A stretch of DNA of 64,000 nucleotides. It comes from an uncultured bacterium (GTDB lineage: Bacteria > Bacteroidota > Bacteroidia > Chitinophagales > Chitinophagaceae). Every line of letters starts with the position of its first letter. The stretch's first letter is position 1. A model generated the notes under the pieces. That model saw only the letters and a list, made by a program, of their open reading frames with translations. It had not been told where the DNA came from and did not search any database. Location: assembly GCA_964293305.1 (NCBI GenBank), contig CAXYYO010000011.1:1-64000 (forward strand), given 5' to 3'. This document shows, piece after piece, positions 31,527 to 48,724 of the stretch. Both the position numbers and the translations under genes were made by a program.

Positions 31527-31806
31527 GATGTACCCATGATGTAGTTGAAATTGGTCAAAAATAAGGGCATTAGTTAAATGTTGTAGATGGGTTGTAGCCT
31601 ATTTTTTGGTAGTAGCATACGTTGAATTTTAAGTTTGCAGCCTAATATTATTTAAAATATTAAACAAACGATTGCAGCATTTCCTACACGGTTACTTTCA
31701 CAACATCAATATGGCAGCTATACATATTGATGGATAATGTAAAGTCCAATTGTCATGCTTGTTGTATGTTTTAGATAAAACTAAATTATTAAAAATTACT
31801 CCTTTT

Positions 31807-34800
31807 ATGAAGAAGATTTCGACGCTTGTTTGTCTCCTAGTATGTACTCAAATGCTATTTGCTCAGCAAGATATTATTACTGTCAAACATGGTGCCGATG
31901 GCCACCGATTAACAGTAAATGGAAAAGATTTTATTGTTAATGGTATGAACTGGGATTATTTTCCAATTGGTACTAACTTCACCTATAGTCTTTGGAATCA
32001 ACCTGCAGATATCATCAAAGCTGCTTTAGATTATGAAATGCCCTTGCTAAAAAATATGGGTATAAATACTATTCGTCAATATACAGGAGTACCAGCAAAG
32101 TGGATTAAATATATATATGAAGAATATGGAATTTATACAATGCTCAATCACAGTTTTGGAAGATATGGTCTTACTCTAAGCGGAGCTTGGTTTCCAAATA
32201 CAAACTACTCTGATCCAAGAGTAAGTGAATTATTAATTAAAGAAGTAAAAGCAATGACTGAGGAATATAAAAATACTCCTGGTTTATTATTATTTCTATT
32301 GGGCAATGAAAATAACTATGGTCTTTTTTGGAGAGGGGCTGAAACAGAAGATATGCCGCAGGAAGACAGGCAATCTACAAAAGATGCCTTCTATCTATAT
32401 AAACTATTTAACGATGCCGTTAAGGAAATGAAATCTATCGACAAAAACCATCCAATGGCTATTTGTAATGGAGATTTACTCTTCTCAGAAATTATAGCAA
32501 AAGAGTGTACTGACATTGATATACTTGGTATTAACTCATATAGAGGAATCAGTTTTACAGATTTATACCAAAAGGCAGCAAAAACAATCAACAAACCTGT
32601 TGTATTAACTGAGTTTGGCGCAGATGCCTACAATGCACAAGGCAATAGCGAAGACCAAGAATACCAAGCAAAAGTTTTGGTGAAAAACTGGAAAGAAATA
32701 TATGCTAATGTGGCCGGTATGGGAAATGCCGGAAACAGTATTGGAGGATTTACCTTTCAGTTTAGCGATGGCTGGTGGAAAACAGGACAAACTGTAAACT
32801 TAGATGAGCATGATCCAGCAGCTTCTTGGTCAAATGGTGGATATCAAAATGACTTTGTAAAAGGTGAAAACAATATGAATGAGGAGTGGTTTGGTATCTG
32901 TGCAAAAGGACCAAACAACGAAAGAGGTATATATCAATTATATCCTCGTGCTGCATATTATGCATTGAAAGAATTACATGAGTTTAATCCATACAGTGAT
33001 GCTGCAAAAACGCAGATTAATGTCATTGATAATATACAAATTACTGATGCAGCTTTAAGAGCCAGAGGTGATAAAGCAGCTCTAGATGCAGAACAAAAAA
33101 GTAAAGTCTATTTAAGTGATTTGCAAGCAAATTTTACAACTTATAACACAGGCGGTTCTTTGATTTCAACACCAAAGGAAGCTGACCCTGCAAACAACGG
33201 TTATCCAAACCGTTTGGGCTTTGACCATATGCAGTCATTCAATATTGGTATTACAGCCAAACCTGCTCCAAACATGACAGCTAATGTACAGTTTAATGTA
33301 TTGGGAAATGTAGCTGAAAATCCAATAGATGAAGTATTTTATGAGAATAGAGGAAGAAGAATAACAGTAAGTACTCCAACTGGCCCTCAACAAATAAATT
33401 CTAACAATAGGGTGCAGTTATATAGAGCAAGTTATACTTGGGATACCAAGTATTTTAACGTAAATGGTTTTTATCGTACCGGTCATTATCATTGGGGATA
33501 TGAAGGGGATTTCTTTGGTCTTTATCCGGAAGCAAACTACGGACCAAATATTGATATATATAATGGCGATGCCCCTTCTGGTTTTGAAATAAAAGGCAAG
33601 AAATTTTTAGACGGTTTTAAATTAGCTTTTGGACCTGAATTGTGGTGGGGAGCAAACCCGGCAGTATTATTGAAATATTCCAAAAAACTGGCTGGATTTC
33701 AGGTGTCAACAGTTTTTCATGAAGACCTTACTCAGCGTTCTGGCATTCAAAGTTCCATAGCAATACCGCAACCCAAAACAAGAAGACTTTCTCTGGCTAT
33801 CGAAAGAAAAGCAGGTAAAGTTGGTGTATCAGTTGGTGGCTTATGGGCAGGCCAACCATTGAATGGCCGCACTTTCCAAGTGGTAAGAGGCACAAAAGAT
33901 AATTATGAAATATTTCAAGACCAGATAAAAGCAGAGGATAATTTTGGTGGTAAGGTAAAATTGACCTACGAAGGTGGAGTTTTCAAATGGTATGCATCAG
34001 GAGCTGCAATGGGTTTAGTAGCAAATGGTGGTTATGATAATACAAAAACATATACCGGATGGAGATTGAAAGATAATGGAAGCGGAAATATGTATAATTT
34101 CCTTTCTGGCTTTACAGTTAATGTGGGTAAAATTCAAATAGCTCCAAATTTCTTATGGCAGAAACCAATTGAAGGACCTATTCCAACAGACGTGCCTGCT
34201 CCGGGTCGTGCAAGAAATATTCAAGATGATCCTTTTTCTGTAAGAATAAATAGAGAAACAGTAGCTGGAGAACTATTATTGACTTATGATCCAACCCCTG
34301 GTACTTGGATGTATGAATGGGATAATGACAGAGCAGAAGATGCAAAATTTGCTATGAGTCTTGACTTTGTATATAGACATTTACCAACTACTCAAGATGC
34401 TGCTATTGGTATTCTTGCAAATGGACGTACCACATTCGCATTTCCCGGTGCTGCACCGGCTTTAGACCTTTGGGAAACAAACCTGAGAATGGTATCTAAA
34501 ATAAATCCCGAATTTGGTATAATAGGGAATATTTATGTAGGAAATGGTCAAGCAAATGGTAGCAATGCCAGAACCATTGATAGGTTTGGTGGAGACATTA
34601 GAACTATTTATAAAAAAGTAAAATTAATGGGTGTAGCAAAGTTCAATGATTGGGGCCCTTTTGACTATCATAGGGACTTTAACCTTACATTCCCATTACA
34701 GCTAATGTTAGATTTATCTACCGAATTGGGCAAGCCAGATTGGTTTCTTTTACCAGGCACTCGCCTAGGAGTAAGAGGTACATACAGAACACTTGATAAA

Positions 34801-34935
34801 TATTCACCACGATACGCACCTACATACACAGTAGGCCCAGACGGAAACCCTGTACCAGATCCAAATGCAATAGGCTACCCCAATGGCAATGAGTGGGAAA
34901 TAAGGACTTACATACAAATAAACATAGGCAAATAA
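31807..34935 (+). CDS. secreted clan GH-A (GH5-like, TIM-barrel) glycoside hydrolase domain fused to a ~640-aa C-terminal β-strand-rich, porin-like region
   Basis: The start is at the internal Met (MKKISTLVCLLVCTQMLFAQ signal). The catalytic-acid motif is LLFLLGNENNYG and the nucleophile motif is VVLTEFGADAY. The C-terminal half is Gly/Asn/Tyr-rich with alternating amphipathic strands (KVKLTYEGGVFKWYASG, RLSLAIERKAGKVGVSVGG). Confidence 0.6.
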   Translation: MKKISTLVCLLVCTQMLFAQQDIITVKHGADGHRLTVNGKDFIVNGMNWDYFPIGTNFTYSLWNQPADIIKAALDYEMPLLKNMGINTIRQYTGVPAKWIKYIYEEYGIYTMLNHSFGRYGLTLSGAWFPNTNYSDPRVSELLIKEVKAMTEEYKNTPGLLLFLLGNENNYGLFWRGAETEDMPQEDRQSTKDAFYLYKLFNDAVKEMKSIDKNHPMAICNGDLLFSEIIAKECTDIDILGINSYRGISFTDLYQKAAKTINKPVVLTEFGADAYNAQGNSEDQEYQAKVLVKNWKEIYANVAGMGNAGNSIGGFTFQFSDGWWKTGQTVNLDEHDPAASWSNGGYQNDFVKGENNMNEEWFGICAKGPNNERGIYQLYPRAAYYALKELHEFNPYSDAAKTQINVIDNIQITDAALRARGDKAALDAEQKSKVYLSDLQANFTTYNTGGSLISTPKEADPANNGYPNRLGFDHMQSFNIGITAKPAPNMTANVQFNVLGNVAENPIDEVFYENRGRRITVSTPTGPQQINSNNRVQLYRASYTWDTKYFNVNGFYRTGHYHWGYEGDFFGLYPEANYGPNIDIYNGDAPSGFEIKGKKFLDGFKLAFGPELWWGANPAVLLKYSKKLAGFQVSTVFHEDLTQRSGIQSSIAIPQPKTRRLSLAIERKAGKVGVSVGGLWAGQPLNGRTFQVVRGTKDNYEIFQDQIKAEDNFGGKVKLTYEGGVFKWYASGAAMGLVANGGYDNTKTYTGWRLKDNGSGNMYNFLSGFTVNVGKIQIAPNFLWQKPIEGPIPTDVPAPGRARNIQDDPFSVRINRETVAGELLLTYDPTPGTWMYEWDNDRAEDAKFAMSLDFVYRHLPTTQDAAIGILANGRTTFAFPGAAPALDLWETNLRMVSKINPEFGIIGNIYVGNGQANGSNARTIDRFGGDIRTIYKKVKLMGVAKFNDWGPFDYHRDFNLTFPLQLMLDLSTELGKPDWFLLPGTRLGVRGTYRTLDKYSPRYAPTYTVGPDGNPVPDPNAIGYPNGNEWEIRTYIQINIGK

Positions 34936-34942
34936 TTTCTAT

Positions 34943-36805
34943 ATGAAAAAGAACATAAATAAACATTTCATCGTATTAGCACTGCTAGCTCTGACCATAG
35001 GATGTAAAAGAGAGCTGTCCGACTTAGAATCTGCAGCATATCCAACAACATCCGCAGTTTTCTTGGACGATTTTACCGGAGACCTTATCTATGCTGCATT
35101 TGGTGGCTCAGATGTAAGAGCATTTCAAGTAGTAAAAGAAGATACTTATGGCGGTTCTGCTGCCGCAATGCGTTTTGATGTGCCGGATGAAAATAGCCCA
35201 AAAGGCGCATTTGCAGGAGGTGCATTCTTTAGCAGAACAGGAAGGGACCTCACGGGATACAATGCACTTACATTTTATGTAAGAGCATCACAACCGGTAA
35301 ATATTGGTGTAGTTGGATTTGGTAATGATTTTGGCGAATCAAAATATGTAACTTCCATTAGTGGGGTACCTGCAAATACAAACTGGCAGAAGGTAATTAT
35401 TCCAATTCCAGACGCTTCAAAACTTTCTGCGGAAAGAGGTTTGTTTTATATTTCAGCAGGTGCATTAAATGGAAGAGGTTATACCATTTGGGTGGATGAA
35501 TTACAATTTGAAAACCTTTCAAATCTTTCACCTGTTACAGGTCTGATTGCATTGGGTAAGGATAGTGTAATAAATGGTGCAGAAAATGAAAGCACATATA
35601 GCACTGGCGCTTTTCAAGCAAGCGCTAATTTACCTTCAGGTATCAACCAAGTTGTAAATACTACCGCAAATTTTTTCACTCTAATTGCTTCAAACTCAAG
35701 TGTAGCAAGTGTAACAGAGAACGGTATAATTACAGTACTTGATTCAGGTCAATCCATCATCACTGCAAAACTTGGTGATCAAGACGCAAAAGGTAGCATT
35801 ACTATCAATGGTGTTGGTGCGGGAATAAAGCCTGCCACAATTGCTCCTGTGCCTTCTTATGATCCGGCAAATGTCATATCAATGTATTCAAATGTTTATC
35901 CAAATGAACCGATAGATACTTGGAATACAAGATGGTTGTATTCTACTGCTGAAAATGATTTCATCAGCCTATATGGTGATGATGTAATCAAATACAGAAG
36001 TTTGAATTTTGTAGGTATAGAATTTACATCCCAACCAATAGATGCTACTGAAATGACAAATTTCCGTATGAATATATGGACACCAGACCCTACTAATTTA
36101 CCAAATAATTTTAAAGTATTGTTAGTTGATTTTGGTGCAAATGGTGTGTTTGGCGGAGGTGATGATGCATCCTCGGAGCTTACATTTACAAGTCCTCTAT
36201 TAGTAACAAATAATTGGGTTACTATTGATGTGCCATTAAGTAGTTTTACTACATTAACTACAAGAGCACATTTAGCACAGTTAGTACTTTCAGGTACTTT
36301 ACCAAACGTTTTTGTAGACAACGTATTGTTCCATAAAATTTCATCAGAACCTACAGTTGCTGCACCTGTTCCAACTTATAATTCAGCAGACCTATTATCC
36401 ATTTTAAGTGATAGTTATACAAATCTGGCTGGAACAGATTTCAATCCAAATTGGGGTCAGGCTACTGTAGTTTCTCAAAAACCTATTGCAGGAAATAATA
36501 CACTTGTATATAAAGGATTAAACTATCAAGGTACACAGTTTGCCTCTGCACAAAATGTATCCGATAAAACATATCTGCACCTTGACTATTATACTACAAA
36601 TTCAACCAGTTTGAAAGTATATTTGATTAGTGCAGGTCCTGCGGAAAAACCCTATACACTCACAGTGCCATCAGGGTCTGGATGGAGAAGCGTTGATATA
36701 CCGTTATCATCATTTGCACCCACCGTGGATTTAACCAAGGTGATACAGATGAAATTTGATGGCAATGGAGATATTTACCTAGACAATATCTTATTTAGAA
36801 AATAA
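34943..36805 (+). CDS. surface lipoprotein with an N-terminal β-sandwich domain, a Big_2-like Ig domain and two CBM-like repeats (candidate surface glycan-binding protein)
   Basis: It has a lipoprotein signal ending in a Cys (LALLALTIGCKRE). Two internal repeats share ...Y(D/N)xA(N/D)(V/L)(I/L)S(M/I)(Y/L)S(N/D)xY...W...IEF(T)...(M/H)...W. It is homologous to 49810-52158 throughout. Confidence 0.65.
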   Translation: MKKNINKHFIVLALLALTIGCKRELSDLESAAYPTTSAVFLDDFTGDLIYAAFGGSDVRAFQVVKEDTYGGSAAAMRFDVPDENSPKGAFAGGAFFSRTGRDLTGYNALTFYVRASQPVNIGVVGFGNDFGESKYVTSISGVPANTNWQKVIIPIPDASKLSAERGLFYISAGALNGRGYTIWVDELQFENLSNLSPVTGLIALGKDSVINGAENESTYSTGAFQASANLPSGINQVVNTTANFFTLIASNSSVASVTENGIITVLDSGQSIITAKLGDQDAKGSITINGVGAGIKPATIAPVPSYDPANVISMYSNVYPNEPIDTWNTRWLYSTAENDFISLYGDDVIKYRSLNFVGIEFTSQPIDATEMTNFRMNIWTPDPTNLPNNFKVLLVDFGANGVFGGGDDASSELTFTSPLLVTNNWVTIDVPLSSFTTLTTRAHLAQLVLSGTLPNVFVDNVLFHKISSEPTVAAPVPTYNSADLLSILSDSYTNLAGTDFNPNWGQATVVSQKPIAGNNTLVYKGLNYQGTQFASAQNVSDKTYLHLDYYTTNSTSLKVYLISAGPAEKPYTLTVPSGSGWRSVDIPLSSFAPTVDLTKVIQMKFDGNGDIYLDNILFRK

Positions 36806-36832: not shown

Positions 36833-37675
36833 ATGAAAGCAATTTATAAAATTTTTAATCGTACACATGCACTACAATATACATTATTGTTTGCATTAGT
36901 TGGCTTATTTTCAAACTGTAAAAAAGAAAGCAAACAAACATTACTTGAAAGATCATACAAATTAGTGTGGAGTGATGATTTTGATGGAATAGCTGGCACG
37001 GCCCCTGATGGTGCAAAATGGACTTATGATATCGGTGCAGGGGGTTGGGGAAATCAAGAGTTACAGTATTATAGTAATAGTACAGAAAACGTATCTCATG
37101 ATGGATTTGGCAACTTACTTATAACAGCTACAAACAAAGGTACTGGTGGTGCTCCATTCACTTCTGGGCGAATAAAAACACAAGGTTTGTTTGGCCAAGC
37201 TTATGGAAGAATTGAGGCAAGATTAAAAACTCCGTCTGGCCCAGGTATTTGGCCTGCTTTCTGGATGCTTGGTGAAGATATCACAACAAATCCATGGCCG
37301 GCATGTGGGGAAATAGATATCATGGAATTAAGGGGTCAAGAGCCATATATCATAAATGGTACTTTACATGGTCCCGGCTATTCTGGTGGCAATTCTGTAA
37401 CAAAAACATATACACTTACAGAAGGCAGATTTGATACAGACTATCACATTTATGCCGTAGAATGGGGCACAGACTATATTGATTTCTTTGTGGATGATTA
37501 TTTATATAATCGTCTTACCCCAGCTGATCTTGCAGGTGAGTGGGTGTATAATAAACCATTCTTTTTAATTTTAAATATAGCAGTGGGCGGTACTTATGTT
37601 GGCTTCCCCACTTCAGGCACATCATTCCCTCAATCTATGGTTATAGACTATGTAAGGGTTTATGATGAACAATAA
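36833..37675 (+). CDS. GH16 family β-glucanase (laminarinase-like) lipoprotein
   Basis: It has the GH16 catalytic motif E-I-D-I-M-E (CGEIDIMELRG) and a lipoprotein signal (LFALVGLFSNCKKE). Confidence 0.85.
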   Translation: MKAIYKIFNRTHALQYTLLFALVGLFSNCKKESKQTLLERSYKLVWSDDFDGIAGTAPDGAKWTYDIGAGGWGNQELQYYSNSTENVSHDGFGNLLITATNKGTGGAPFTSGRIKTQGLFGQAYGRIEARLKTPSGPGIWPAFWMLGEDITTNPWPACGEIDIMELRGQEPYIINGTLHGPGYSGGNSVTKTYTLTEGRFDTDYHIYAVEWGTDYIDFFVDDYLYNRLTPADLAGEWVYNKPFFLILNIAVGGTYVGFPTSGTSFPQSMVIDYVRVYDEQ

Positions 37676-37797
37676 ATCCTGTTAAAAACTTTAGGAGTTG
37701 ATAAGATACTTTTCAACTCCTTTTTTATGAATTAATTTTTCAACCCTATTCTCTTAACTATCTCTTCTCTAACAAAAATTACACTGACGAATATTAA

Positions 37798-40700
37798 TTG
37801 TACATGACCACTACGATGCTTGAAACAGTTGAAATAAACAACGAAGCGTTTTTTAAAATTTCTGATACGGATGCTATGCGCCCATTCTTTATGAGCATTG
37901 TGAGCAATTCGGATCATTGGATGTTTGTATCTAGCAATGGAGGAATTTCCGCAGGAAGAAAAAATCCTGACAATGCATTCTTCCCTTATTATACAGATGA
38001 TAAAATAACCGAGCATGCAGAAAACACAGGCAGCAAAACGATATTTCAAATCAGTAAAGGAGGCACTACCTATTTATGGGAGCCATTTTCCAATCGGGGC
38101 GAAGGCCGTTATGATATTACCAGAAATATTTATCAAAATAAGTGGACAAATAAGGTACTCTTTGAAGAAATAAATCTTGACCTTCATCTTACATTCCAAT
38201 ATGAATGGAACAGTAGTAATCTATTTGGATTTGTAAAACAATCTAGGTTATTTAATAACTCCACTGAAACCATAGATGTAAAATTGGTAGATGGTTTTCA
38301 GAATATCATTCCAGCTGGTGTACCCTGCGATTTACAAACAAAAACCAGTAATCTGGCTGATGCTTATAAACGGTCAGAACTACTGCCAGCATTGGGTATT
38401 GGCATTTTTGCATTGAGTGCAATCATAGTTGATAAAGCTGAACCAGCAGAAGCACTTAAAGCAAATATTGCATGGAGTGTAGGTTTAGATAATGCGGTTT
38501 ATCTTCTTTCCCCCAACCAACTCAAAGCTTTCAGACAAAATCAAAATATATATCAAGAAGAGGATATAAAAGGAGAGAAGGGAAGCTATTTGGTAGTAAG
38601 TAATTTATCCCTTGAAGCAGGAGTACAAAAGCACTGGATGGTGATTGGTAACCTGAACCAAAATCATTCCGCGTTAGCGGCATTGTCAAACCAAATTTCT
38701 ACTGACAATGATCTGAAACATAAAATACTTGCAGATATTGAAGCGGGTACACATCAGTTAAAACAGTTGACTGGAGCGGCAGACAGTTTTCAATATACCG
38801 CTGATAAACTAAATGATACTAGGCATTTTTCCAATGTATTATTCAATATAATGCGTGGGGGTATCTTTGACAATAATTATCAAATACACAAAAAAGATTT
38901 TTTACAATATCTCCAAAAAGCAAATAAAATAGTATATCAAACTGTACAACCTGAGTTATCAAATCTTGCGGATGAATTTTCACTTTTTGGATTAAAAAAT
39001 ATTGCAGCAGCTTCGTTAAATCCTGATTTTATTAGACTGGCCACAGAATATCTGCCTCTAAAATTTAGCCGCAGACATGGTGACCCAAGTAGACCATGGA
39101 ACCAGTTTTCAATAAATATTAAAAACGAAAATGATGGGTCAGAAATATTAGATTATCAGGGTAATTGGCGAGACCTATTTCAAAATTGGGAGGCACTGGC
39201 CTACTCCTATCCCTCTTTTATTGAAGGCATGATTTCTAAGTTTTTAAATGCCACTACTTTTGAAGGGTATAATCCATATCGTGTTACAAAAGATGGCTTT
39301 GACTGGGAAACGATAGAACCTGATAATCCCTGGAGTTATATTGGCTACTGGGGCGATCATCAAATTATTTATTTATTAAAATTTTTAGAATTTTCAGAAC
39401 AACTGGATGCAGGTTCAATATCAAAAATGTTGGCAAAAAGGAATTTTGTATATGCCAATGTGCCTTATAAAATTAAGGCATATCAAGACATTGTAAAGCA
39501 TCCAAAAGACACTATCGAATTTGATCACCTTAATGAGAAAAATATACATGTAAGGATACAAGCAATGGGAGCAGACGGGGCATTGCTACAAAATCTTTCC
39601 GGTGAAATATATCGGGTAAATTTCCTAGAGAAAATACTGGCAACGCTACTCTCAAAATTATCGAATTTTATACCGGAAGCTGGCATTTGGATGAATACAC
39701 AAAGGCCAGAAGGGAATGATGCCAACAATGCATTAGTGGGCAATGGAGTATCCATGGTTACTCTATGCTATCTCCGAAGATTTTTAAAATTTTTACAGCC
39801 TGTACTTGCCAATATTGCAAAGCAAAATATTCCAATATCAAAAGAGCTTTATACGCTCTTTAATGATCTATCAAATATCTTTTCAAACAACCTAACATTA
39901 CTCTCTGCGCCTATTTCTGATAAGGATAGAAAAATCATAACTGATGCATTGGGTGAAGCAGGAAGTGCATATCGAATCCAGATTTATGAGCATGGTTTTT
40001 CTGCTGAAATGAAGGAAGTATCCGGTGCTGAACTCATTTCACTTGTTAATCATTCAATACAATTTGCAGAGCACACAATAAGAGCTAATAAAAGAAAGGA
40101 TGGTTTATATCATGCCTACAATCTTTTGAGTTTTGATGGAGAAGCAGTTCGCATTGCTTACCTCAGTGAAATGTTAGAAGGGCAGGTGGCTGTGCTAAGT
40201 TCAGGTCTGCTTTCTCCAAAAGAAAATGCTGAAGTATTAGAAGCATTAAAGAATAGTGCATTATACAGAGCAGAGCAAAACAGCTATATCCTATATCCCA
40301 ATAAATCATTACTAAAATTTTCAGAAAGAAATACGATACCCAATACAGCTGTACAAAATTCAGAGCTACTTAAGAAACTATTAAATGACAATAGTACGGC
40401 TATCCTAGAAAAAGATATAAATGGCCAGTATCATTTCAATGGCAATTTTAAAAATGCAGGCGATTTATTGATTGGTTTAAATAGACTAAGTGCAAAATAT
40501 CAATTGCTTGTAGCCAAGGAAAAAAGCATTGTTCTACAAATATTTGAAGACGTTTTCAATCACAAAGAATTTACTGGAAGGTCGGGTACATTCTATGGTT
40601 ATGAAGGCTTGGGTTCTATATACTGGCATATGGTTTCAAAATTGGGAGTGGCGGCTATGGAAGTTTGTTTGCAGGCCATTCAAGATAATGCAGATGGGGA

Positions 40701-41223
40701 GATTGTATCAAAACTCATTGCTCAGTATTATGATGTAAAAGCCGGAATTGGTGTGCACAAATCTCCACAGGTTTTTGGAGCATTTCCTATTACTCCTTAT
40801 TCGCATACGCCTTTTAATAAAGGTGCACAACAACCGGGCATGACTGGTCAGGTAAAAGAAGATATTTTATGCCGCATTGGCGAACTTGGTATAAAACTTA
40901 AAGATGGTTATCTCAAATTTGAACCACGATTATTATTTGCAGCCGAATTTTTGACACCTAAAAGTACCGCTACATTTGTACTTTCTGATGGTAGTATAAA
41001 AGAGATTTCAATGCCAGAAAATAGTTTGGCTTTTTCTATTTGTCAGCTGCCTGTTATCTATACAAAATCCCAACAAAATAAAATAGAAGTACATCATTCA
41101 AATGGTGCCATAGAATCATTTGAAGGTAATACATTGAATGCAGATATCAGTACTAAGATCTTTCAAAGAACTGGAGAAATTATTACACTCATTGTTCACA
41201 TCAATACAGACATTTTGCGATAA
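37798..41223 (+). CDS. large (1141 aa) signal-less, predicted cytoplasmic protein; candidate glycoside phosphorylase (GH94/GH149/GH161-like), function unverified
   Basis: No N-terminal hydrophobic segment is present. It sits inside the β-glucan locus and its stop overlaps the downstream GH17 start (TAATG). No family signature was confidently recognised by eye. Confidence 0.35.
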   Translation: MYMTTTMLETVEINNEAFFKISDTDAMRPFFMSIVSNSDHWMFVSSNGGISAGRKNPDNAFFPYYTDDKITEHAENTGSKTIFQISKGGTTYLWEPFSNRGEGRYDITRNIYQNKWTNKVLFEEINLDLHLTFQYEWNSSNLFGFVKQSRLFNNSTETIDVKLVDGFQNIIPAGVPCDLQTKTSNLADAYKRSELLPALGIGIFALSAIIVDKAEPAEALKANIAWSVGLDNAVYLLSPNQLKAFRQNQNIYQEEDIKGEKGSYLVVSNLSLEAGVQKHWMVIGNLNQNHSALAALSNQISTDNDLKHKILADIEAGTHQLKQLTGAADSFQYTADKLNDTRHFSNVLFNIMRGGIFDNNYQIHKKDFLQYLQKANKIVYQTVQPELSNLADEFSLFGLKNIAAASLNPDFIRLATEYLPLKFSRRHGDPSRPWNQFSINIKNENDGSEILDYQGNWRDLFQNWEALAYSYPSFIEGMISKFLNATTFEGYNPYRVTKDGFDWETIEPDNPWSYIGYWGDHQIIYLLKFLEFSEQLDAGSISKMLAKRNFVYANVPYKIKAYQDIVKHPKDTIEFDHLNEKNIHVRIQAMGADGALLQNLSGEIYRVNFLEKILATLLSKLSNFIPEAGIWMNTQRPEGNDANNALVGNGVSMVTLCYLRRFLKFLQPVLANIAKQNIPISKELYTLFNDLSNIFSNNLTLLSAPISDKDRKIITDALGEAGSAYRIQIYEHGFSAEMKEVSGAELISLVNHSIQFAEHTIRANKRKDGLYHAYNLLSFDGEAVRIAYLSEMLEGQVAVLSSGLLSPKENAEVLEALKNSALYRAEQNSYILYPNKSLLKFSERNTIPNTAVQNSELLKKLLNDNSTAILEKDINGQYHFNGNFKNAGDLLIGLNRLSAKYQLLVAKEKSIVLQIFEDVFNHKEFTGRSGTFYGYEGLGSIYWHMVSKLGVAAMEVCLQAIQDNADGEIVSKLIAQYYDVKAGIGVHKSPQVFGAFPITPYSHTPFNKGAQQPGMTGQVKEDILCRIGELGIKLKDGYLKFEPRLLFAAEFLTPKSTATFVLSDGSIKEISMPENSLAFSICQLPVIYTKSQQNKIEVHHSNGAIESFEGNTLNADISTKIFQRTGEIITLIVHINTDILR

Positions 41224-42473
41224 TGAGCAAACTGTCATCCATCATATTAATTTGCATAATGGCCTGCGCTTGCGGCTATGGTTCAAAGATTGATTCTGTA
41301 GAAAGAACGGCTGCAGAAATTTTGGGCGATAAAAACTATCAAGCAATATGTTATGGAGGATACAGATCCACCACAAGAGATGTAGCCCCAACAGTGGCAG
41401 AAATAAAAGAAGATTTAAAAATATTATCCGCACTAAACTTTAAGATTTTAAGAACATACAATGTCTATTTGCCAGAGATAAATAACCTGCTTCAAGCCAT
41501 TGCGGAGCTAAAAAAAGAAATCTCAAATTTTGAAATGTATGTAATGATGGGTACATGGATTGATTGTAAAAATGCATGGACAAGTGCAGCTCCTATTCAT
41601 ACAGAAGAAAGTGATAAAAACGCAACAGAAATAGCAACAGCTGTACAGTTGGCCAATCAATACCCTGATATTGTAAAAATTATTGCCGTAGGCAATGAAG
41701 CAATGGTAAACTGGGCTACAGGATATTATGTTACTCCAGATATCATCCTAAAATGGGTTACCCATTTACAAACACTGAAACAGGAAAATAAGTTGCCAAA
41801 AGATTTATGGATAACTAGTTCTGACAATTTTGCCTCTTGGGGTGGCGGTGGAAATGAATATCATGTACCTGCATTGGAGGCGCTTGTAAAAGCTGTTGAT
41901 TATATATCTGTGCATACCTACCCCATGCATGATACACATTACAACCCTGCCTTTTGGGGCGTAAAAGTATCTGAGCAAAAGCTTAGTAATAAACAGCAGA
42001 TTGATGCTGCTATGCTGCGTGCAAAATGGTATGCAGTAGCACAATATGACAGTGTAGTATCTTACATAAAGTCAATAGGTGTAGAAAAACCTGTACATAT
42101 TGGAGAAACGGGCTGGGCATCAGTATGTAATGAACTGTATGGTCCAAATGGTTCAATGGCTGTGGATGAATACAAATCTGCACAGTATTATCATTTAATA
42201 AGGGACTGGTCAAATGCAAATAATATAAGTTGTTTTTTCTTTGAAGCTTTTGATGAAAGCTGGAAGAATAGTGCAAATCCAATGCATTCAGAAAATCATT
42301 TTGGTTTAATCAATTTACAATCCGAAGCAAAATATGCTCTTTGGCACCAGGTAGATGCAGGAGCGTTAAAAGGCTTAAGTAGAAATGGCATGCCCATTTC
42401 CAAAACATATAATGGTAATGATACCCTTTTATGGAAAGATGTACTAACGCCAAAAAAAATATTAAATGATTAA
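41223..42473 (+). CDS. GH17 family β-1,3-glucanase/transglycosylase lipoprotein
   Basis: It has a lipoprotein signal (IILICIMACACGYGSK). The GH17 catalytic motifs are IAVGNEAMVNW (acid/base) and HIGETGWAS (nucleophile). Confidence 0.8.
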   Translation: MSKLSSIILICIMACACGYGSKIDSVERTAAEILGDKNYQAICYGGYRSTTRDVAPTVAEIKEDLKILSALNFKILRTYNVYLPEINNLLQAIAELKKEISNFEMYVMMGTWIDCKNAWTSAAPIHTEESDKNATEIATAVQLANQYPDIVKIIAVGNEAMVNWATGYYVTPDIILKWVTHLQTLKQENKLPKDLWITSSDNFASWGGGGNEYHVPALEALVKAVDYISVHTYPMHDTHYNPAFWGVKVSEQKLSNKQQIDAAMLRAKWYAVAQYDSVVSYIKSIGVEKPVHIGETGWASVCNELYGPNGSMAVDEYKSAQYYHLIRDWSNANNISCFFFEAFDESWKNSANPMHSENHFGLINLQSEAKYALWHQVDAGALKGLSRNGMPISKTYNGNDTLLWKDVLTPKKILND

Positions 42474-44019
42474 AATGCTAAAAGTCCAACACTACCATAA
42501 AAAAATTGTATCGTATTTAATTTTTGTGTTTATGATGATCACTACAATTACAAGCTGCACCGGTAATGAAACATTCACAACAGAAGTATATGAAACAGCT
42601 GCAAATGGTAATGCCTTAACGCTAATCACTGATCAATCTTCAAAGGAAGCACCAATAGAAATAACCATAAACCCAGAAGAAAAATATCAAACCATTACAG
42701 GATTTGGTGGTTCGTTTACACAAGCTACTGCTACCCTGCTCAATCAAATGAGTGATACAAATCGTAAAAAAATTTTAGCAGCATATTTTGGTGATGATGG
42801 TGCAAGATATTCATTAACCAGAACCCATATCAACTCCTGCGATTTCTCTACTCACAATTATGCCTATGCTAATGAGCCCGGAGATACTGCACTCAATAGC
42901 TTTTCCATTGATGAGGATAGAAAAGCATTAATCCCAATAATTAAACAAGCTATGAGCCTTTCAACCGAAGGGTTTAAAATAATATCATCACCTTGGTCAG
43001 CACCACCTTGGATGAAAGATAATAATGATTGGAGAGGTGGAAAACTATTGCCACAATACAACAATACATGGGCCAAGTACTTTGCAAAGTATTTAGATGC
43101 CTATAAAAAAGAGGGTATTGATATATGGGGTATCACTGTAGAAAACGAGCCCTTGGGTAATGGAAAGAATTGGGAAAGTATGGATTTTTCTCCTGAGGAA
43201 ATGACAGCATTTGTAAAAGATTTTCTAGGTCCCTATCTCGAAAACAATGGCCATGCCTCCGTAAAGATTTTAGGCTATGATCAAAACCGTGGGGATGCTT
43301 TAAAACAATGGGCAGATGTAATGTATGCTACTGAATCGTCTTCAAAATATTTTTCAGGAATGGCGGTACATTGGTATGCCAGTACTTATGATGTATTTCC
43401 TGAATCATTACAACATACTTATGAAAAAGCCCCACAAAAATATATCATCAATACAGAGGCTTGCATAGATGCCGATGTACCACATTGGAAAGATGACAAT
43501 TGGTATTGGAGCAAGGAAGCCACAGATTGGGGTTGGGATTGGGCAAGTGAAGCAGAAAAATATTTGCATCCAAAGTATGCCCCAGTATTTCGATATGCCA
43601 ATGATATAATCGGGTGTTTAAACAACAGGGTAGATGGATGGATAGATTGGAATATGGTTTTAGATAAACAGGGTGGCCCAAACTGGTTTAAGAACTGGTG
43701 TACAGCTCCTGTAATTGTAGATACAACCACAGATGAAGTTTATTTTACACCACTATTTTATACCCTTTCCCATTTTAGTAAATTCATAAGACCCGGTGCT
43801 GTAAGAATTGGGTTCACAAATCAAGATAGTTCATTACAAGTTACTGCTGCGCAGAATCCGGATGGCTCCATGGCCATTGTACTTTTTAACCCAACAGAAA
43901 ACGATAAAAATTATAATATCACCTTCGGTGAAAAAAAAATAGCTAGCATCATTCACGGAAAAGCAATACAAACCGTAGTCATAAAAAAATCAAATCAAAC
44001 AAGCAATGACAAAAAGTAA
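42466..44019 (+). CDS. GH30 family glycoside hydrolase (β-1,6-glucanase-like) lipoprotein
   Basis: It has the GH30 hallmarks TITGFGGSFT and SPWSAPPWMK, the acid/base ITVENEP and a lipoprotein signal (ITTITSCTG). It overlaps the neighbouring genes by 8 nt and 14 nt. Confidence 0.8.
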   Translation: MIKMLKVQHYHKKIVSYLIFVFMMITTITSCTGNETFTTEVYETAANGNALTLITDQSSKEAPIEITINPEEKYQTITGFGGSFTQATATLLNQMSDTNRKKILAAYFGDDGARYSLTRTHINSCDFSTHNYAYANEPGDTALNSFSIDEDRKALIPIIKQAMSLSTEGFKIISSPWSAPPWMKDNNDWRGGKLLPQYNNTWAKYFAKYLDAYKKEGIDIWGITVENEPLGNGKNWESMDFSPEEMTAFVKDFLGPYLENNGHASVKILGYDQNRGDALKQWADVMYATESSSKYFSGMAVHWYASTYDVFPESLQHTYEKAPQKYIINTEACIDADVPHWKDDNWYWSKEATDWGWDWASEAEKYLHPKYAPVFRYANDIIGCLNNRVDGWIDWNMVLDKQGGPNWFKNWCTAPVIVDTTTDEVYFTPLFYTLSHFSKFIRPGAVRIGFTNQDSSLQVTAAQNPDGSMAIVLFNPTENDKNYNITFGEKKIASIIHGKAIQTVVIKKSNQTSNDKK

Positions 44020-45448
44020 AACAGATCCAAAAGACATTGTGCCTTTTGGGCAGAAAGTAGCTTTTGGTGCCGGCAATCTTACCAATCAACTATTACCGGC
44101 GGCCTTAGGTGTATTTATGTTTTTCTTAGTAGTAGGCTTTGGTATGAATCCTACAAAAGCTGGTATCCTTGCTGCCATACCAAGATTTATTGATGCCATT
44201 CTCGATCCTATCATGGGATATATCTCAGACAATACAAGGTCCAAATGGGGTCGTAGAAAACCTTATATTTTTGGAGGTGCTATCATTACGGGATTGTCTT
44301 TTATACTCATGTGGCAATTAAAAATACCTGTAGAAGGAAATAATAATGAAACGTATAATTTCATTTACTTCCTTATCATGTCTGTGGTTTTTTATTTAGG
44401 GTATACTGTTTTTGCAGCACCATTAATAGGGTTAGGATATGAAATGACACCAGACTATAATGAGCGTACTCGGTTAATGGCCATGAGCCAAATTATGGGT
44501 CAAATAGCATGGATGATTGCACCTTGGTTTTGGTTTCTTATTTCTAGGCCTGAAATATTTCCAAATGCCCCTACAGGTGTAAGACAACTCTCTGTTTGGG
44601 TAGGTGTATTGTGTTTGATAATGGGTATAATGCCAGCTATCTTTTGCAAAGAGGTTGATCAAGCTAATCTACAGGGTCAAACAAAATTATCTATGAAAGA
44701 TTTAGTTGCCAATATGAAACATTTTTTTGGCGACATTAAAAAAACAATCACTAACAAACCATTCTTACGACTATGTGGAGCTACTTTTTTAGTATTTAAT
44801 GGATTTCAAATAGTGGCACAGTTTGCCTTCTTCATCATTATCTTTTATATGTATAATGGAGATCAGGCAGCGGCAGGTCAGTGGCCAGCATGGTTTGGAA
44901 CTGTAAGTGCTTTAGTTACTGCTACTTTGGTTATTCCAATCATCACATACATGTCCACAAAAATTGGTAAGAGAAACGCATTTATTGTTTCTACTATTAT
45001 ATCCATTGTTGGATATTCACTTAAATGGTTTGGATTTTCACCGGGCAATCCTTGGTTAATGTTTATGCCCATACCATTGATGTCATTTGGTATAGGTGGT
45101 TTATTCACTTTAATGATGAGTATGACTGCTGATGTATGTGATTATGATGAATTAAAAAATGGAATGCCACGCAAAGAAGCATTGTTTGGCGCAGTGTACT
45201 GGTGGATGGTTAAATTAGGAACATCATTAGCATTGTTTATAAGTGGAGTGGTACTGAGCAGCGTTGGGTTTGATCAAAACGCCAAAGAACAATCAGCATC
45301 TGCTATAACTGCACTGCGTATGGCTGATGTTATTGTGCCATCAATAGCAGGGCTGCTTGCCATTGTAGTAATGTGGGGATATAATATTTCTGAAAAAAGA
45401 GCCATTGAAATCAGAGAAGAATTAATCATTAGAAGAGGTAAATTATAA
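44006..45448 (+). CDS. GPH family (MFS_2; glycoside-pentoside-hexuronide:cation) symporter
   Basis: The 480-aa ORF has about 12 TM helices. The GPH signature is DPIMGYISDNTRSKWGRRKPYIFGGA (D-x3-R...GRR-P). Confidence 0.8.
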   Translation: MTKSKTDPKDIVPFGQKVAFGAGNLTNQLLPAALGVFMFFLVVGFGMNPTKAGILAAIPRFIDAILDPIMGYISDNTRSKWGRRKPYIFGGAIITGLSFILMWQLKIPVEGNNNETYNFIYFLIMSVVFYLGYTVFAAPLIGLGYEMTPDYNERTRLMAMSQIMGQIAWMIAPWFWFLISRPEIFPNAPTGVRQLSVWVGVLCLIMGIMPAIFCKEVDQANLQGQTKLSMKDLVANMKHFFGDIKKTITNKPFLRLCGATFLVFNGFQIVAQFAFFIIIFYMYNGDQAAAGQWPAWFGTVSALVTATLVIPIITYMSTKIGKRNAFIVSTIISIVGYSLKWFGFSPGNPWLMFMPIPLMSFGIGGLFTLMMSMTADVCDYDELKNGMPRKEALFGAVYWWMVKLGTSLALFISGVVLSSVGFDQNAKEQSASAITALRMADVIVPSIAGLLAIVVMWGYNISEKRAIEIREELIIRRGKL

Positions 45449-45470: not shown

Positions 45471-47813
45471 ATGTCAAACCATACAGGATCAGTTGCTAAA
45501 GTACCCATGATTCAAAAAATAGCTTTCGGACTTGGCATGCTTGCCAATCAAATGTTTCCGGCAGCTTTGGGCATATTCATGGTAGTGCTGGTAGAAGATT
45601 TAAAATTTCCTGCATGGATGTGGGGTTTCTTATTTTTTGTACCACGCATATTTGATGCTTTTGTAGATCCCATCATGGGTTTTATAACTGACAATACCAA
45701 GTCAAAGTGGGGAAGAAGAAGGCAGTATGTATTTGCTGGTGCCATTCTAATGGGCATTTCATTTATTGCCATGTGGCAGCTATACAGAGAAAATGGTATT
45801 GATTATAATTTCATTTATTTCCTCATCTGGTCTTTTCTGTTTTATTTAGGATTATCAATATTCAGTGTACCTTATGTAGCCATGGGATATGAAATGAGTG
45901 ACGATTTTCATGAGCGCACAAGTATCATGGCCATTTCCCAATGGATTGGTCATTGGGCTTGGGTTATAGCACCTTGGTTTTGGGTGGTTATGTATGATAA
46001 AGGGTGGTTTGTAAATGCCGATACAGCCACAAGAACGCTGGCTATATGGGTAGGTGTGGTTTGTATGCTACTCGCCATGACGCCTGCCTTTTTTATTAAA
46101 AGTAAATCTACATTAAACGAAGAGAGTTATACACCATTAAGTATGAAAACAATTGGTGGTAGTCTCAAAGAAATATTTGAAAGTTTTAAAGAAGCATTCA
46201 AGCTTAAAGCATTTAGAAAACTCTGTATAGCTACATTTTTTATCTTCAATGCATTCAACACAGTAGCAGGGTTTACTTTCTTCATTGTTGTATATCATTT
46301 GTTTGGCGGCAAAGCAGAAGATGCGGGTATCTGGCCTACATTATTTGGTAGTGTGGGTGCATTGGTTACTACATTTATTGTTATTCCAATAGTCTCTTTT
46401 ATTTCAAAGAAAATGGGTAAAAAATCTGCGTTCTTGTTATGTCAGGGCATATCCATTCTTGGTTATATTATGTTGTGGTTTTTCTTTATCCCGGGCAAGC
46501 CATATATGTTTCTTTTTGCATTACCATTTTTCTCTTTTGGCATAGGAAGTTTATTTACTTTGATGATGAGTATGACCGCAGATGTATGCGATATGGATGA
46601 ACTTTCATCAGGAAAAAGAAGGGAAGGAATTTTTGGTGCTATCTATTGGTGGATGGTGAAATTTGGGTTTGCCATTGCAGGTTTATTAACCGGAGTTATT
46701 ATGTCTGGGGTTGGCTTTGTGCCGGGTGCAGACACACAGGCAGATGGCGCTATTACAGGGCTACGATTATTTTTCTCAGGCATACCCATTGCAGGTACAT
46801 TAATAGCCATGTGGGTAATGCGAAATTATGATTTGAATGAAGAAAAAGCTAGAGAAATAAAAGCAGAATTAGATAGAAGAAAAGCTAGTCCAAAAATATC
46901 TTCTGGATACCAGGCCGGAAATTTGTGGCAGAGAGCAAGCCATCTTCAACTGCCTCATTTTACAGGAGCCCCCTTACAGCAAATGACTGAAGATAAAATT
47001 AAAGAAATGTTTGCCTTTCAACTAAAAAAAGGAGTACATGGTCTATGTTTTAGTCCTTATCTTGAAGGTCAAGATGCAGGGGATATATTGATTGAATCAG
47101 AAACAAAAGCAAGGGTGGAAATTGTGGCGCCTCATACCCAGTGGGTCCGTTCTTTCTCAACTACAGCAGGTCATGAAATCATTCCATCATTTGCAAAAGA
47201 AAAAGGACTGAAAACAGTAGCCGGGGCATGGATAAGTAATGATAAATTGCAAAATGAAAAAGAAATTGCAAACCTTATACAACTTGCAAAAGCGGGTAAA
47301 GTTGATATAGCAACAGTAGGCAATGAAGTTTTGCTGCGCAATGAATTAAATACAGCTGATCTTGTAGCATATATTAACAAGGTAAAGGAAGCAGTACATC
47401 CGGTGCCGGTTAGTTATGTTGATGCCTATTTTCAATGGATAGAACATCCGGAGTTGATAGATGCTTGCGATATGGTGATGATAAATTGCTATCCATTCTG
47501 GGAGGGTTCATCAATCGAAAATAGCTTGGATGATTTACGAAAAATGTATTTACTGATGAAGCAATCTGCTCCAAATAAAAAAGTTATTATTGCAGAAACC
47601 GGATGGCCAAGTGAAGGGGATAATATAAATAATGCAACACCCTCTACGCTGAATGCTCAAAAATATTTTCTAGCAGTACAGGAATGGGCTATCAAAGAAA
47701 ATATTGAGCTCTTCTATTTTTCATCTTTTGATGAAACATGGAAAATAAAACAAGAAGGAGCATTGGGAGCTAGATGGGGCATTTGGAATAAGGATGAAAA
47801 ATTAAAATATTAA
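45471..47813 (+). CDS. GPH family symporter (aa ~1-470) fused in frame to a C-terminal GH17 domain (aa ~490-780)
   Basis: The N-terminal half has ~12 TM helices and the signature DPIMGFITDNTKSKWGRRRQYVFAGA. The C-terminal half has the GH17 motifs ATVGNEVLLRN and IIAETGWPSEGD. It is closely paralogous to 47828-48724, and both end ...WGIW(N/D)K.E.LKY. Confidence 0.75.
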   Translation: MSNHTGSVAKVPMIQKIAFGLGMLANQMFPAALGIFMVVLVEDLKFPAWMWGFLFFVPRIFDAFVDPIMGFITDNTKSKWGRRRQYVFAGAILMGISFIAMWQLYRENGIDYNFIYFLIWSFLFYLGLSIFSVPYVAMGYEMSDDFHERTSIMAISQWIGHWAWVIAPWFWVVMYDKGWFVNADTATRTLAIWVGVVCMLLAMTPAFFIKSKSTLNEESYTPLSMKTIGGSLKEIFESFKEAFKLKAFRKLCIATFFIFNAFNTVAGFTFFIVVYHLFGGKAEDAGIWPTLFGSVGALVTTFIVIPIVSFISKKMGKKSAFLLCQGISILGYIMLWFFFIPGKPYMFLFALPFFSFGIGSLFTLMMSMTADVCDMDELSSGKRREGIFGAIYWWMVKFGFAIAGLLTGVIMSGVGFVPGADTQADGAITGLRLFFSGIPIAGTLIAMWVMRNYDLNEEKAREIKAELDRRKASPKISSGYQAGNLWQRASHLQLPHFTGAPLQQMTEDKIKEMFAFQLKKGVHGLCFSPYLEGQDAGDILIESETKARVEIVAPHTQWVRSFSTTAGHEIIPSFAKEKGLKTVAGAWISNDKLQNEKEIANLIQLAKAGKVDIATVGNEVLLRNELNTADLVAYINKVKEAVHPVPVSYVDAYFQWIEHPELIDACDMVMINCYPFWEGSSIENSLDDLRKMYLLMKQSAPNKKVIIAETGWPSEGDNINNATPSTLNAQKYFLAVQEWAIKENIELFYFSSFDETWKIKQEGALGARWGIWNKDEKLKY

Positions 47814-47827
47814 ATCAACACATATAT

Positions 47828-48724
47828 ATGTCATTTAGAAAAGAAAACATATTATCACTTCGGCCAGATTCAGCAAGTAGCTATGTAGCCGGTGAATCAG
47901 AAGATACGCTTAAAGATTTATTTGCAGAAATAATGCAAAATGGGGTACATGGATTTTGTTTCAGTTTATATGAAGATGGACAAAAACCGGGTGATATCAT
48001 TTCTGAGGCACAGGTGCGTCGCCGCATGAATATCTTAAAGCCGCATACAAAATGGATACGTTCATTTTCCTGCACAGAGGGAAATGAATGGATACCTCGA
48101 ATAGCTAAAGAAATGGGCATTAAAACCCTAGTAGGTGCATGGCTTGGCAATGATCCTGAAATTAATAAAAGAGAAATTGAAGGATTACTTCAGTTAGCCA
48201 AAGAAGGTTTGGTAGATATTGCTGCGGTGGGCAATGAAGTGATGTACAGAAAAGATCTTACCGAAGATGAATTACTCGAATTCATCCACCATGTAAAATC
48301 TGAAATACCACATATACCCGTTGGCTATGTAGATGCATATTATGAGTTTTCTCATAGACATAGAATTACAGAAGCTTGCGATGTTATACTCTGCAATTGT
48401 TATCCATTCTGGGAAGGATGCCCCATTGATAATTCATTGGATTATATGAAGCAAATGTATTATCAAGCCAAAGCGGCAGCCAATGGAAAGGAAGTAATCA
48501 TAACAGAAACGGGCTGGCCAAGTATGGGTGAAACGCTCAAAGGCTCTGTACCATCAGAAAAAAGTTCAAGAGATTATTTTATTAATACACAATTATGGTC
48601 AGCCAATGATAATATACCCACATTCTATTTTTCATCTTTTGATGAGTCTTGGAAGGTAGGGGCGGAAGGTGTGGTAGGCGCTTACTGGGGCATTTGGGAT
48701 AAGCATGAAAATCTGAAATACTAA
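47828..48724 (+). CDS. GH17 family protein without signal peptide (predicted cytoplasmic)
   Basis: The 298-aa ORF has AAVGNEVMYRK and IITETGWPSMGE. The N-terminus MSFRKENILSLRPDSASSYVAGESED has no hydrophobic leader. Confidence 0.8.
   Translation: MSFRKENILSLRPDSASSYVAGESEDTLKDLFAEIMQNGVHGFCFSLYEDGQKPGDIISEAQVRRRMNILKPHTKWIRSFSCTEGNEWIPRIAKEMGIKTLVGAWLGNDPEINKREIEGLLQLAKEGLVDIAAVGNEVMYRKDLTEDELLEFIHHVKSEIPHIPVGYVDAYYEFSHRHRITEACDVILCNCYPFWEGCPIDNSLDYMKQMYYQAKAAANGKEVIITETGWPSMGETLKGSVPSEKSSRDYFINTQLWSANDNIPTFYFSSFDESWKVGAEGVVGAYWGIWDKHENLKY

Follow-up and report, generated by a model that had tools for sequence, protein, structure and literature searches.

A stretch of 64,000 nucleotides from an uncultured member of the Chitinophagaceae (Bacteroidota; positions 1 to 64,000 of the forward strand of contig CAXYYO010000011.1, GenBank assembly GCA_964293305.1; the whole stretch is called the window here) carries, at 37804–41223 of the + strand, the gene for a protein of 1139 amino acids that is publicly labelled 'hypothetical'. 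Taken together, the comparisons described below indicate that this gene very probably encodes an inverting β-1,3-glucan phosphorylase of glycoside hydrolase (GH) family GH149, clan GH-Q, in which the glycine read at residue 637 (G637) is most likely a sequence error, the enzyme then being normal. In terms of annotation, the 'hypothetical' protein becomes an ordinary GH149 enzyme in a typical Bacteroidota laminarin operon.

Family assignment

The assignment to GH149 rests on matches that span nearly the entire protein. The NCBIfam equivalog NF058639 ('1,3-beta-D-glucan phosphorylase, GH149 family') is matched at 1687.8 bits, far beyond its cut-off of 1150, and residues 5–1134 align with profile positions 6–1134 of 1134. 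Among PDB sequences searched with phmmer, the Pro_7066 entries 6HQ6/6HQ8 are matched at 1430 bits in one uninterrupted stretch (residues 6–1133); a realignment, for which the 6HQ6 chain sequence was rebuilt from the printed search alignments, gives 58.1% identity over 1126 columns. GH149 belongs to clan GH-Q, and Pro_7066 and EgP1 from Euglena are its only two members for which phosphorolysis of β-1,3-gluco-oligosaccharides has been demonstrated by experiment; the substrates of Pro_7066 range from G2 to G6 and longer (PMC5827456). The family is large: all 8000 of the 8000 candidates scored in a 90%-clustered database fall below E 1e-10, which makes for at least 8000 homologues, and 888 representatives at 50% identity lie below E 1e-30.

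An earlier note on this DNA, made from the letters alone, had described the protein as being of unknown family. This is accurate as far as Pfam is concerned, which holds no GH149 model and returns only noise for this open reading frame (ORF; best E 0.12), and the lack of a Pfam model accounts for the failure to place the ORF by eye; it does not apply to NCBIfam and the PDB, both of which name GH149. The same note had guessed at a cytoplasmic β-1,3-glucan or oligosaccharide phosphorylase of the GH94, GH149 or GH161 type and had proposed structure prediction as a check. The guess proved correct, and the profile NF058639, the structure 6HQ6 and the fold search all single out GH149 from the three families. 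When an AlphaFold2 model built from a 23-sequence alignment was used in a Foldseek search, 6HQ6 came out on top (E 3.7e-96, TM-score 0.50), followed by GH161 (~1e-27) and GH94 (~1e-19) phosphorylases, the GH94 structures retrieved being those of laminaribiose, cellobiose, chitobiose and cellodextrin phosphorylases. The model itself is moderate (mean pLDDT 67.7, pTM 0.54); its confidence is low in the best-conserved segments, the catalytic loop among them, and it is too poor to show how G637 affects the structure. The GH149 architecture, with an N-terminal β-sandwich, a helical linker, an (α/α)6 barrel with the insertions Dom1 and Dom2, and a jelly roll at the C-terminus, was recovered mainly from the sequence alignment to 6HQ6, the model being moderate.

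Since GH94, GH161 and GH149 all belong to clan GH-Q and have a common fold, the fold search by itself might be read as favouring a GH94 or GH161 enzyme, and phmmer also finds GH161 chains at E ~9e-10. Yet that sequence match is confined to N-terminal residues 39–203 and does not extend over the full length, the matches to both families are weaker than those to GH149 by tens of orders of magnitude, and structural-alignment identity is 8–14% to GH161 and GH94 structures (14% for GH161) compared with 56% to 6HQ6. No GH94 domain is reported by Pfam even at E <= 1, and no GH94 chain by phmmer at E <= 0.01. Membership of GH94 or GH161 in place of GH149 is extremely unlikely.

Reading frame, start site and N-terminus

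The ORF of 1141 amino acids that had been described at 37798–41223 (+) is present and begins with TTG. An alternative ATG lies two codons further 3′, at 37804. Two public protein products, P0001 and P0271, are 1139 amino acids long and therefore start at this ATG; with the same start, residue 5 pairs with position 6 of the NF058639 profile. For these reasons ATG 37804, rather than TTG 37798, is more likely to be the true start, and residue numbers are counted from it.

Nothing but the one unusual residue, G637, would speak for a frame left open by chance or for a pseudogene. The probability that a frame of this length stays open by chance is ~1e-37 (at the window's GC content of 35.8%, a codon is a stop with a probability of 0.072), the alignment to both the profile and the crystal structure is full-length and unbroken, and the homologues number in the thousands. 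The chances of such an origin are negligible.

The first 60 residues are polar (MTTTMLETVEINNEAFFKISDTD...) and contain no hydrophobic segment. Their best 10-residue Kyte–Doolittle mean is 1.3, compared with 2.6–3.2 in the signal peptides of the GH16, GH17A, GH30 and 620-amino-acid proteins encoded nearby. On the strength of this hydrophobicity profile and of the homology to a soluble enzyme, the protein is predicted to have no signal peptide, in agreement with the earlier description of it as signal-less. Neither of the observations that the note had listed as contradicting its guess, namely a signal peptide or a match to a family not active on carbohydrates, was made.

The active site and residue 637

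The active site of Pro_7066 is built from a WND catalytic loop (W651, N652 and D653, the last being the predicted catalytic aspartate), an RD motif (R470/D471), E951 and H959 (PMC6771811). R470/D471 correspond to R456/D457 of the window protein, N652/D653 to N638/D639, E951 to E934 and H959 to H942. All of these are identical; they never vary among 23 relatives and are retained by 135 or more of 150 distant representatives; a catalytic aspartate, D639, is thus in place together with the RD motif and the equivalents of E951 and H959.

The sole mismatch among the named active-site residues concerns W651, a W-to-G change that could not have been noticed from the letters alone. The catalytic-loop motif at 39712–39720 (+) reads G637-N638-D639 (GGG AAT GAT) where the family has W-N-D, the glycine being encoded by GGG at 39712–39714. 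Tryptophan is what all 120 of the closest homologues have here, as do 81 of 81 GH149-bearing loci (80 genome loci, described below, and a Logan contig) and 148 of 148 alignable representatives at 50% identity, which are 35–54% identical to the window protein; the two apparent exceptions among the 150 representatives are fragments that do not align there. In total, 349 of 349 comparable homologues have the tryptophan. Its equivalent in the cellobiose phosphorylase of C. gilvus (CgCBP), Trp488, is listed as a sugar-binding residue and is conserved even in a GH161 enzyme (PMC5501786). A literature search for mutagenesis of the WND tryptophan in GH94 found only this statement on Trp488 (PMC5501786), and a search of PMC6484121 for the residue found nothing. 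The missing tryptophan lowers confidence in the activity of the protein and leaves its homology to GH149 as it is, CAZy families being defined by sequence similarity.

Sequence error or natural allele

The window protein differs from P0001 at this position only: P0001 has tryptophan at residue 637, and four contigs of the same population encode it. The whole window of 64,000 bases was compared with two assemblies of this population, Logan ERR13598997_568 and ENA ERZ24875810 NODE_46, which agree with each other wherever they overlap. Six differences set the window apart from them. Given as other assemblies > window, three are intergenic (10260 T>G, 10262 T>A and 58305 T>C) and three change a protein: 39712 T>G, where the Logan contig has T and the window G, produces W637G in GH149; 45953 A>T produces Q161H in a transporter–GH17 fusion, the window having H161; and 57775 A>T produces L174Q in the gene of a minus-strand β-helix protein. 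Transversions account for five of the six, and none of the three coding changes is synonymous. Between close strains, natural variation normally includes many transitions and many synonymous changes. The pattern is therefore explained better by random consensus error than by polymorphism that has been filtered by selection, and on this comparison G637 is probably an error in the deposited sequence. A 44-nucleotide pattern across 39712 that allowed either G or T had no match in genome_contigs or metagenome_contigs, and neither allele is represented there.

The interpretation as a GH149 phosphorylase with a misread codon has to be weighed against a number of observations. The tryptophan of the WND motif is absent from the protein as deposited, and the enzyme as literally encoded may be poorly active or inactive. 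The deposited NCBI/ENA protein P0271, encoded on a contig of 88,893 bp, matches the window protein at every residue, G637 among them; being a public record, it also shows that the glycine was not introduced by the window file. Six events are few, and the argument for error is not firm. The surface oligosaccharide-binding site of Pro_7066 is largely changed: K831 and Y993 are kept and E994 is replaced by Asp, while E838, Y841, E982, E990 and R1062 have become A, N, G, A and F, respectively. According to the authors of the structure, only close relatives of Pro_7066 share this site (PMC6771811). Both the moderate confidence of the AlphaFold2 model and its TM-score of only 0.50 to 6HQ6 belong on the same side of the balance. 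So does a putative hairpin with a U run upstream of the gene, described below, which may leave co-transcription of GH16 and GH149 uncertain.

On the sequences at hand, a real G637 allele would be possible though clearly the less favoured of the two origins, and it should, if real, leave the −1 subsite crippled. The scenario would be that of a recent mutation that removed the aromatic platform of the −1 subsite beside the catalytic aspartate and left the enzyme inactive or strongly impaired, with the cytoplasmic GH17 hydrolases of the locus taking over. The identity of P0271 with the window protein speaks for such an allele, as do a clean GGG codon and an otherwise intact full-length frame; that the change would be crippling is supported by the invariance of the tryptophan in every comparable homologue, its place in the WND motif (PMC6771811) and the sugar-binding role assigned to it in GH94 (PMC5501786). 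Against this stand the tryptophan in the four other contigs of the population, the window-specific differences, most of them transversions and every coding one non-synonymous, and the lack of any other decay: the gene contains neither a frameshift nor a premature stop, and no other of the 1139 residues is substituted. We consider a recently disabled enzyme rather unlikely. It is improbable to a far greater degree that G637 is genuine and the enzyme still in use, which would make it a natural clan GH-Q phosphorylase without the tryptophan platform. Were this the case, the donor/acceptor pocket would be enlarged and might take 6-O-branched or decorated glucosyl units, or the balance between phosphorolysis and hydrolysis might shift. 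It is important to bear in mind that the deposited sequence is altered at an invariant active-site tryptophan, which matters both for cloning with biocatalysis in view and for counting 'functional' GH149 enzymes in metagenome-assembled genomes (MAGs).

The junction with GH17A

Returning to the reading of the gene as a GH149 phosphorylase with a probable error at G637, its genomic setting starts with the gene that follows it. The stop codon of GH149 (TAA, 41221–41223) and the start codon of the next gene (ATG, 41223–41225) overlap as TAATG at 41221–41225 (+), just as the earlier note had said. The downstream gene (41223–42473, +, 416 amino acids) encodes a GH17 endo-β-1,3-glucanase lipoprotein that is the orthologue of FbGH17A, the Formosa endo-laminarinase: residues 26–410 match PDB 6FCG at 544 bits (E 1.7e-162), which places the protein in GH17, where Pfam GH17 gives 23 bits, below its threshold of 28.2. 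The neighbour that had been described as a GH17 lipoprotein is thereby substantiated on both counts, since the start at 41223 supplies a lipoprotein signal, MSKLSSIILICIMAC. One public gene call begins GH17A at 41259 and so loses the signal peptide; the start at 41223 is favoured because the orthologous GH17A proteins all start with lipoprotein signals at the same place.

Conservation of the junction was followed across 80 loci from Bacteroidota genomes, which a search with the GH149 alignment had brought up. GH17A follows GH149 in 70 of them; the junction is of the TAATG type (1-nt overlap) in eight loci including the window and of the ATGA type (4-nt overlap) in five, and elsewhere the genes are mostly separated by no more than 16 nt. 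The tight co-expression that had been proposed from the overlap is borne out to this extent by conserved adjacency and by overlapping or very short junctions. GH149 and GH17A are probably co-transcribed, and the TAATG sequence suggests that they are translationally coupled as well. The two proteins would then be made together and yet act in different compartments.

The remaining partners are also widely retained: GH16 occurs in 68 of the 80 loci, GH30 in 61 and a fusion of a major facilitator superfamily (MFS) transporter with GH17 in 56; upstream of GH149 there is a homologue of a GH2-like protein of 1061 amino acids in 48 and a homologue of the 620-amino-acid lipoprotein in 49, and a BguR-type regulator adjoins the locus in 25. 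The gene order is kept in most loci, and the hosts include Chitinophagaceae, Saprospiraceae, Flavobacterium, Formosa, Winogradskyella and Balneola. Within species-representative genomes the nearest GH149 is 69% identical to the window protein, and the nearest relatives are Chitinophagaceae/Saprospiraceae-type MAGs, not Flavobacteriaceae.

Proposed function

The likely role of the enzyme, judging from its family and gene neighbourhood, is to phosphorolyse imported laminari-oligosaccharides in the cytoplasm, with glucose 1-phosphate as the product. Outside the cytoplasm, the secreted lipoproteins GH16, GH17A (endo-β-1,3) and GH30 (β-1,6 debranching) would cut a laminarin-type β-1,3/1,6-glucan, and the resulting oligosaccharides would be taken up through the operon's two GPH-type MFS symporters. 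In the cytoplasm, GH149 would use inorganic phosphate to remove the non-reducing glucose, yielding α-glucose 1-phosphate and a chain one unit shorter. D639 would serve as the general acid, R456/D457 and E934 would hold the glucosyl unit, and H942 together with the GMTGQ loop would hold the phosphate. A phosphoglucomutase could pass α-glucose 1-phosphate on to glycolysis without ATP, which would save one ATP per glucose relative to hydrolysis followed by a kinase, while the signal-less GH17 domains might hydrolyse the oligosaccharides left over.

Could the enzyme run mainly in the synthetic direction in vivo and build an intracellular β-1,3-glucan store from glucose 1-phosphate? The reactions of GH149 enzymes can run both ways, and in vitro Pro_7066 builds chains up to a degree of polymerization (DP) of 11 (PMC5827456); a storage function of the products of cytoplasmic GH17B has also been speculated upon for Muricauda (PMC13188888). 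The company that the gene keeps argues the other way. Endo-glucanases that are secreted, sugar importers and an enzyme for debranching are encoded in the operon, with the gene of a BguR-type regulator alongside, and in Formosa agariphila BguR acts as an activator that responds to laminarin (bioRxiv 10.64898/2026.01.10.698779). A further argument against synthesis is physiological. Cytoplasmic phosphate levels generally favour phosphorolysis. A primarily synthetic role is thus very unlikely, and the degradative role outlined above is preferred. In a wider sense, the locus supports energy-saving cytoplasmic phosphorolysis as a standard part of β-glucan use in Bacteroidota, well beyond the marine Flavobacteriaceae.

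Organization of the locus

The operon runs in the order GH149, GH17A, GH30, MFS, MFS–GH17, GH17 and GH17-like; 5′ of it lie GH16, the GH2-like gene, the gene of a lipoprotein resembling carbohydrate-binding module (CBM) proteins, and the BguR-type regulator. The genes on the + strand are tightly packed, with overlaps or gaps of no more than 27 nt save for a gap of 128 nt between GH16 and GH149.

The regulator is divergently encoded at 28572–31526 (−, 984 amino acids). Propeller repeats and a Y_Y_Y domain are followed by a weakly matching GerE/LuxR helix-turn-helix at the C-terminus (17.7 bits); domains of the HisKA, HATPase and receiver types were not found in it. This architecture, as predicted from the sequence, matches BguR, a recently described membrane-spanning one-component regulator of laminarin polysaccharide utilization loci (PULs) (bioRxiv 10.64898/2026.01.10.698779).

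The first gene on the + strand (31750–34935) encodes the secreted GH2-like protein of 1061 amino acids, with an N-terminal clan GH-A TIM barrel. Its matches are weak and leave most of its length unmatched: GH2 is reached at 30.6 bits in Pfam and E 1e-4 in the PDB, and GH158 more weakly still (9ORO E 0.023, 6PAL E 0.096). Homologues in the laminarin loci of Muricauda have been called GH2 (PMC13188888). It is followed at 34943–36805 (+) by the 620-amino-acid lipoprotein, all of whose matches (Ig-like, CBM11, SGBP_B) lie below threshold and which is without a relative in the PDB; it is possibly β-glucan-binding, like an unclassified CBM protein in the BguR preprint (bioRxiv 10.64898/2026.01.10.698779). 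These two proteins were considered as a SusC/SusD pair and ruled out, there being no Plug, TonB-receptor or SusD domains and a GH-A TIM barrel in the first. Pfam and NCBIfam scans of the locus genes between 28572 and 49668 found no SusC/SusD pair. A TonB-dependent receptor that is not of the SusC type (CarboxypepD_reg/Plug/OMP_b-brl_3) is encoded at ~58328–61138 (−), ~9 kb downstream of the β-glucan locus.

GH16 (36833–37675, +) is an endo-β-glucanase with a lipoprotein-type signal (Pfam PF00722, 81.9 bits). The gap of 128 nt that separates it from GH149 contains a predicted hairpin at 37693–37728 (+), in which a 9-bp stem (AGGAGUUGA/UCAACUCCU) is followed by UUUUUU (−14.2 kcal/mol, z −3.1). 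A consensus scan passed over it, its loop being longer than 8 nt. This element may terminate or attenuate GH16 transcripts and would in that event split the locus into two transcription units. A sigma-70 promoter scan returned 70 sites compared with 76.5 expected and was thus uninformative.

Downstream of GH17A, GH30 (42466–44019, +) overlaps the end of the preceding gene by 8 nt and encodes an endo-1,6-β-glucanase-like protein with a lipoprotein-type signal (PF02055, 267.8 bits; NCBIfam NF053856, 248 bits, which is below the equivalog cut-off). The next gene (44006–45448, +) encodes a GPH-family MFS sugar:cation symporter (Pfam MFS_2, 230 bits; TIGR00792, 200.5 bits, below the cut-off of 231.35). 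The MFS(GPH)–GH17 fusion at 45471–47813 (+) joins 12 transmembrane segments to a C-terminal GH17 domain (MFS_2 at residues 19–457, GH17 at residues 684–780). Two small proteins without signal peptides complete the operon: GH17 (47828–48724, +, 298 amino acids; Pfam GH17, 39.3 bits) and, 2 nt after it, a GH17-like protein (48727–49668, +, 313 amino acids; Pfam GH17, 23.4 bits, sub-threshold). Their sequences suggest cytoplasmic β-1,3-glucosidases or transglycosylases beside the phosphorylase.

Proteins with a C-terminal sorting domain of the type IX secretion system (Por_Secre_tail) are encoded at 49810–52158 (+) and 55291–56727 (+). The former lies directly 3′ of the operon, has a Big_2 domain and a weak CBM11-like match in addition, and could be a secreted accessory protein for glucan binding or degradation.

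Comparison with known systems

Apart from the features specific to the window, all that is seen here has precedents. Earlier work covers GH149 as a family, together with its structure and its presence in Bacteroidetes PULs (PMC5827456, PMC6771811), laminarin loci with GH149, GH17A, GH30 and MFS–GH17 (PMC6246565, PMC13188888) and the BguR-type regulator (bioRxiv 10.64898/2026.01.10.698779). Specific to the window are a Chitinophagales/Saprospirales-like host whose nearest GH149 relative is 69% identical, a locus in which no SusC/SusD pair is seen, and the G637 substitution.

The closest characterised relative is Pro_7066 (6HQ6/6HQ8; PMC5827456, PMC6771811). Both proteins are of the Bacteroidota type, the 58% identity covers all domains, and the RD motif, the N-D pair, E951 and H959 are identical. 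They differ in that W651 is replaced by Gly in the window protein, which keeps two of the eight surface-site residues with Asp in place of E994. EgP1 from Euglena (PMC5827456) is likewise a GH149 enzyme, with which the reaction and the active-site residues are presumably common; unlike the window protein, it is eukaryotic, acts on endogenous paramylon and prefers short acceptors, and it is 45% identical to Pro_7066 according to published figures. The remaining families of the clan, GH161 (PDB 9QQK, 9GY9) and GH94 with PsLBP (PDB 6GGY), have the clan GH-Q fold as well as a catalytic aspartate, −1-subsite residues and a phosphate-binding histidine that are conserved clan-wide. Their sequence similarity to the window protein is only remote; GH94 enzymes are without Dom1 and Dom2 and are specific for disaccharides (PMC6771811), and GH161 enzymes need a DP of at least 3.

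At the level of the locus, the flavobacterial laminarin loci of Formosa (PMC6246565), F. agariphila (bioRxiv 10.64898/2026.01.10.698779) and Muricauda (PMC13188888) resemble the window in both the set and the order of their genes, with the regulator, the GH2-like and CBM-like proteins, GH16, GH149, GH17A, GH30, MFS/MFS–GH17 and GH17, and the set of 80 loci includes that of a Formosa sp. Hel1_33_131 MAG (L041). The window's GH17A is a close orthologue of FbGH17A, and its MFS–GH17 fusion has the architecture of FbGH17B (PMC6246565). What distinguishes the window from the flavobacterial laminarin PULs is that no SusC/SusD is seen at this locus and that its host is of the Chitinophagaceae/Saprospiraceae type.

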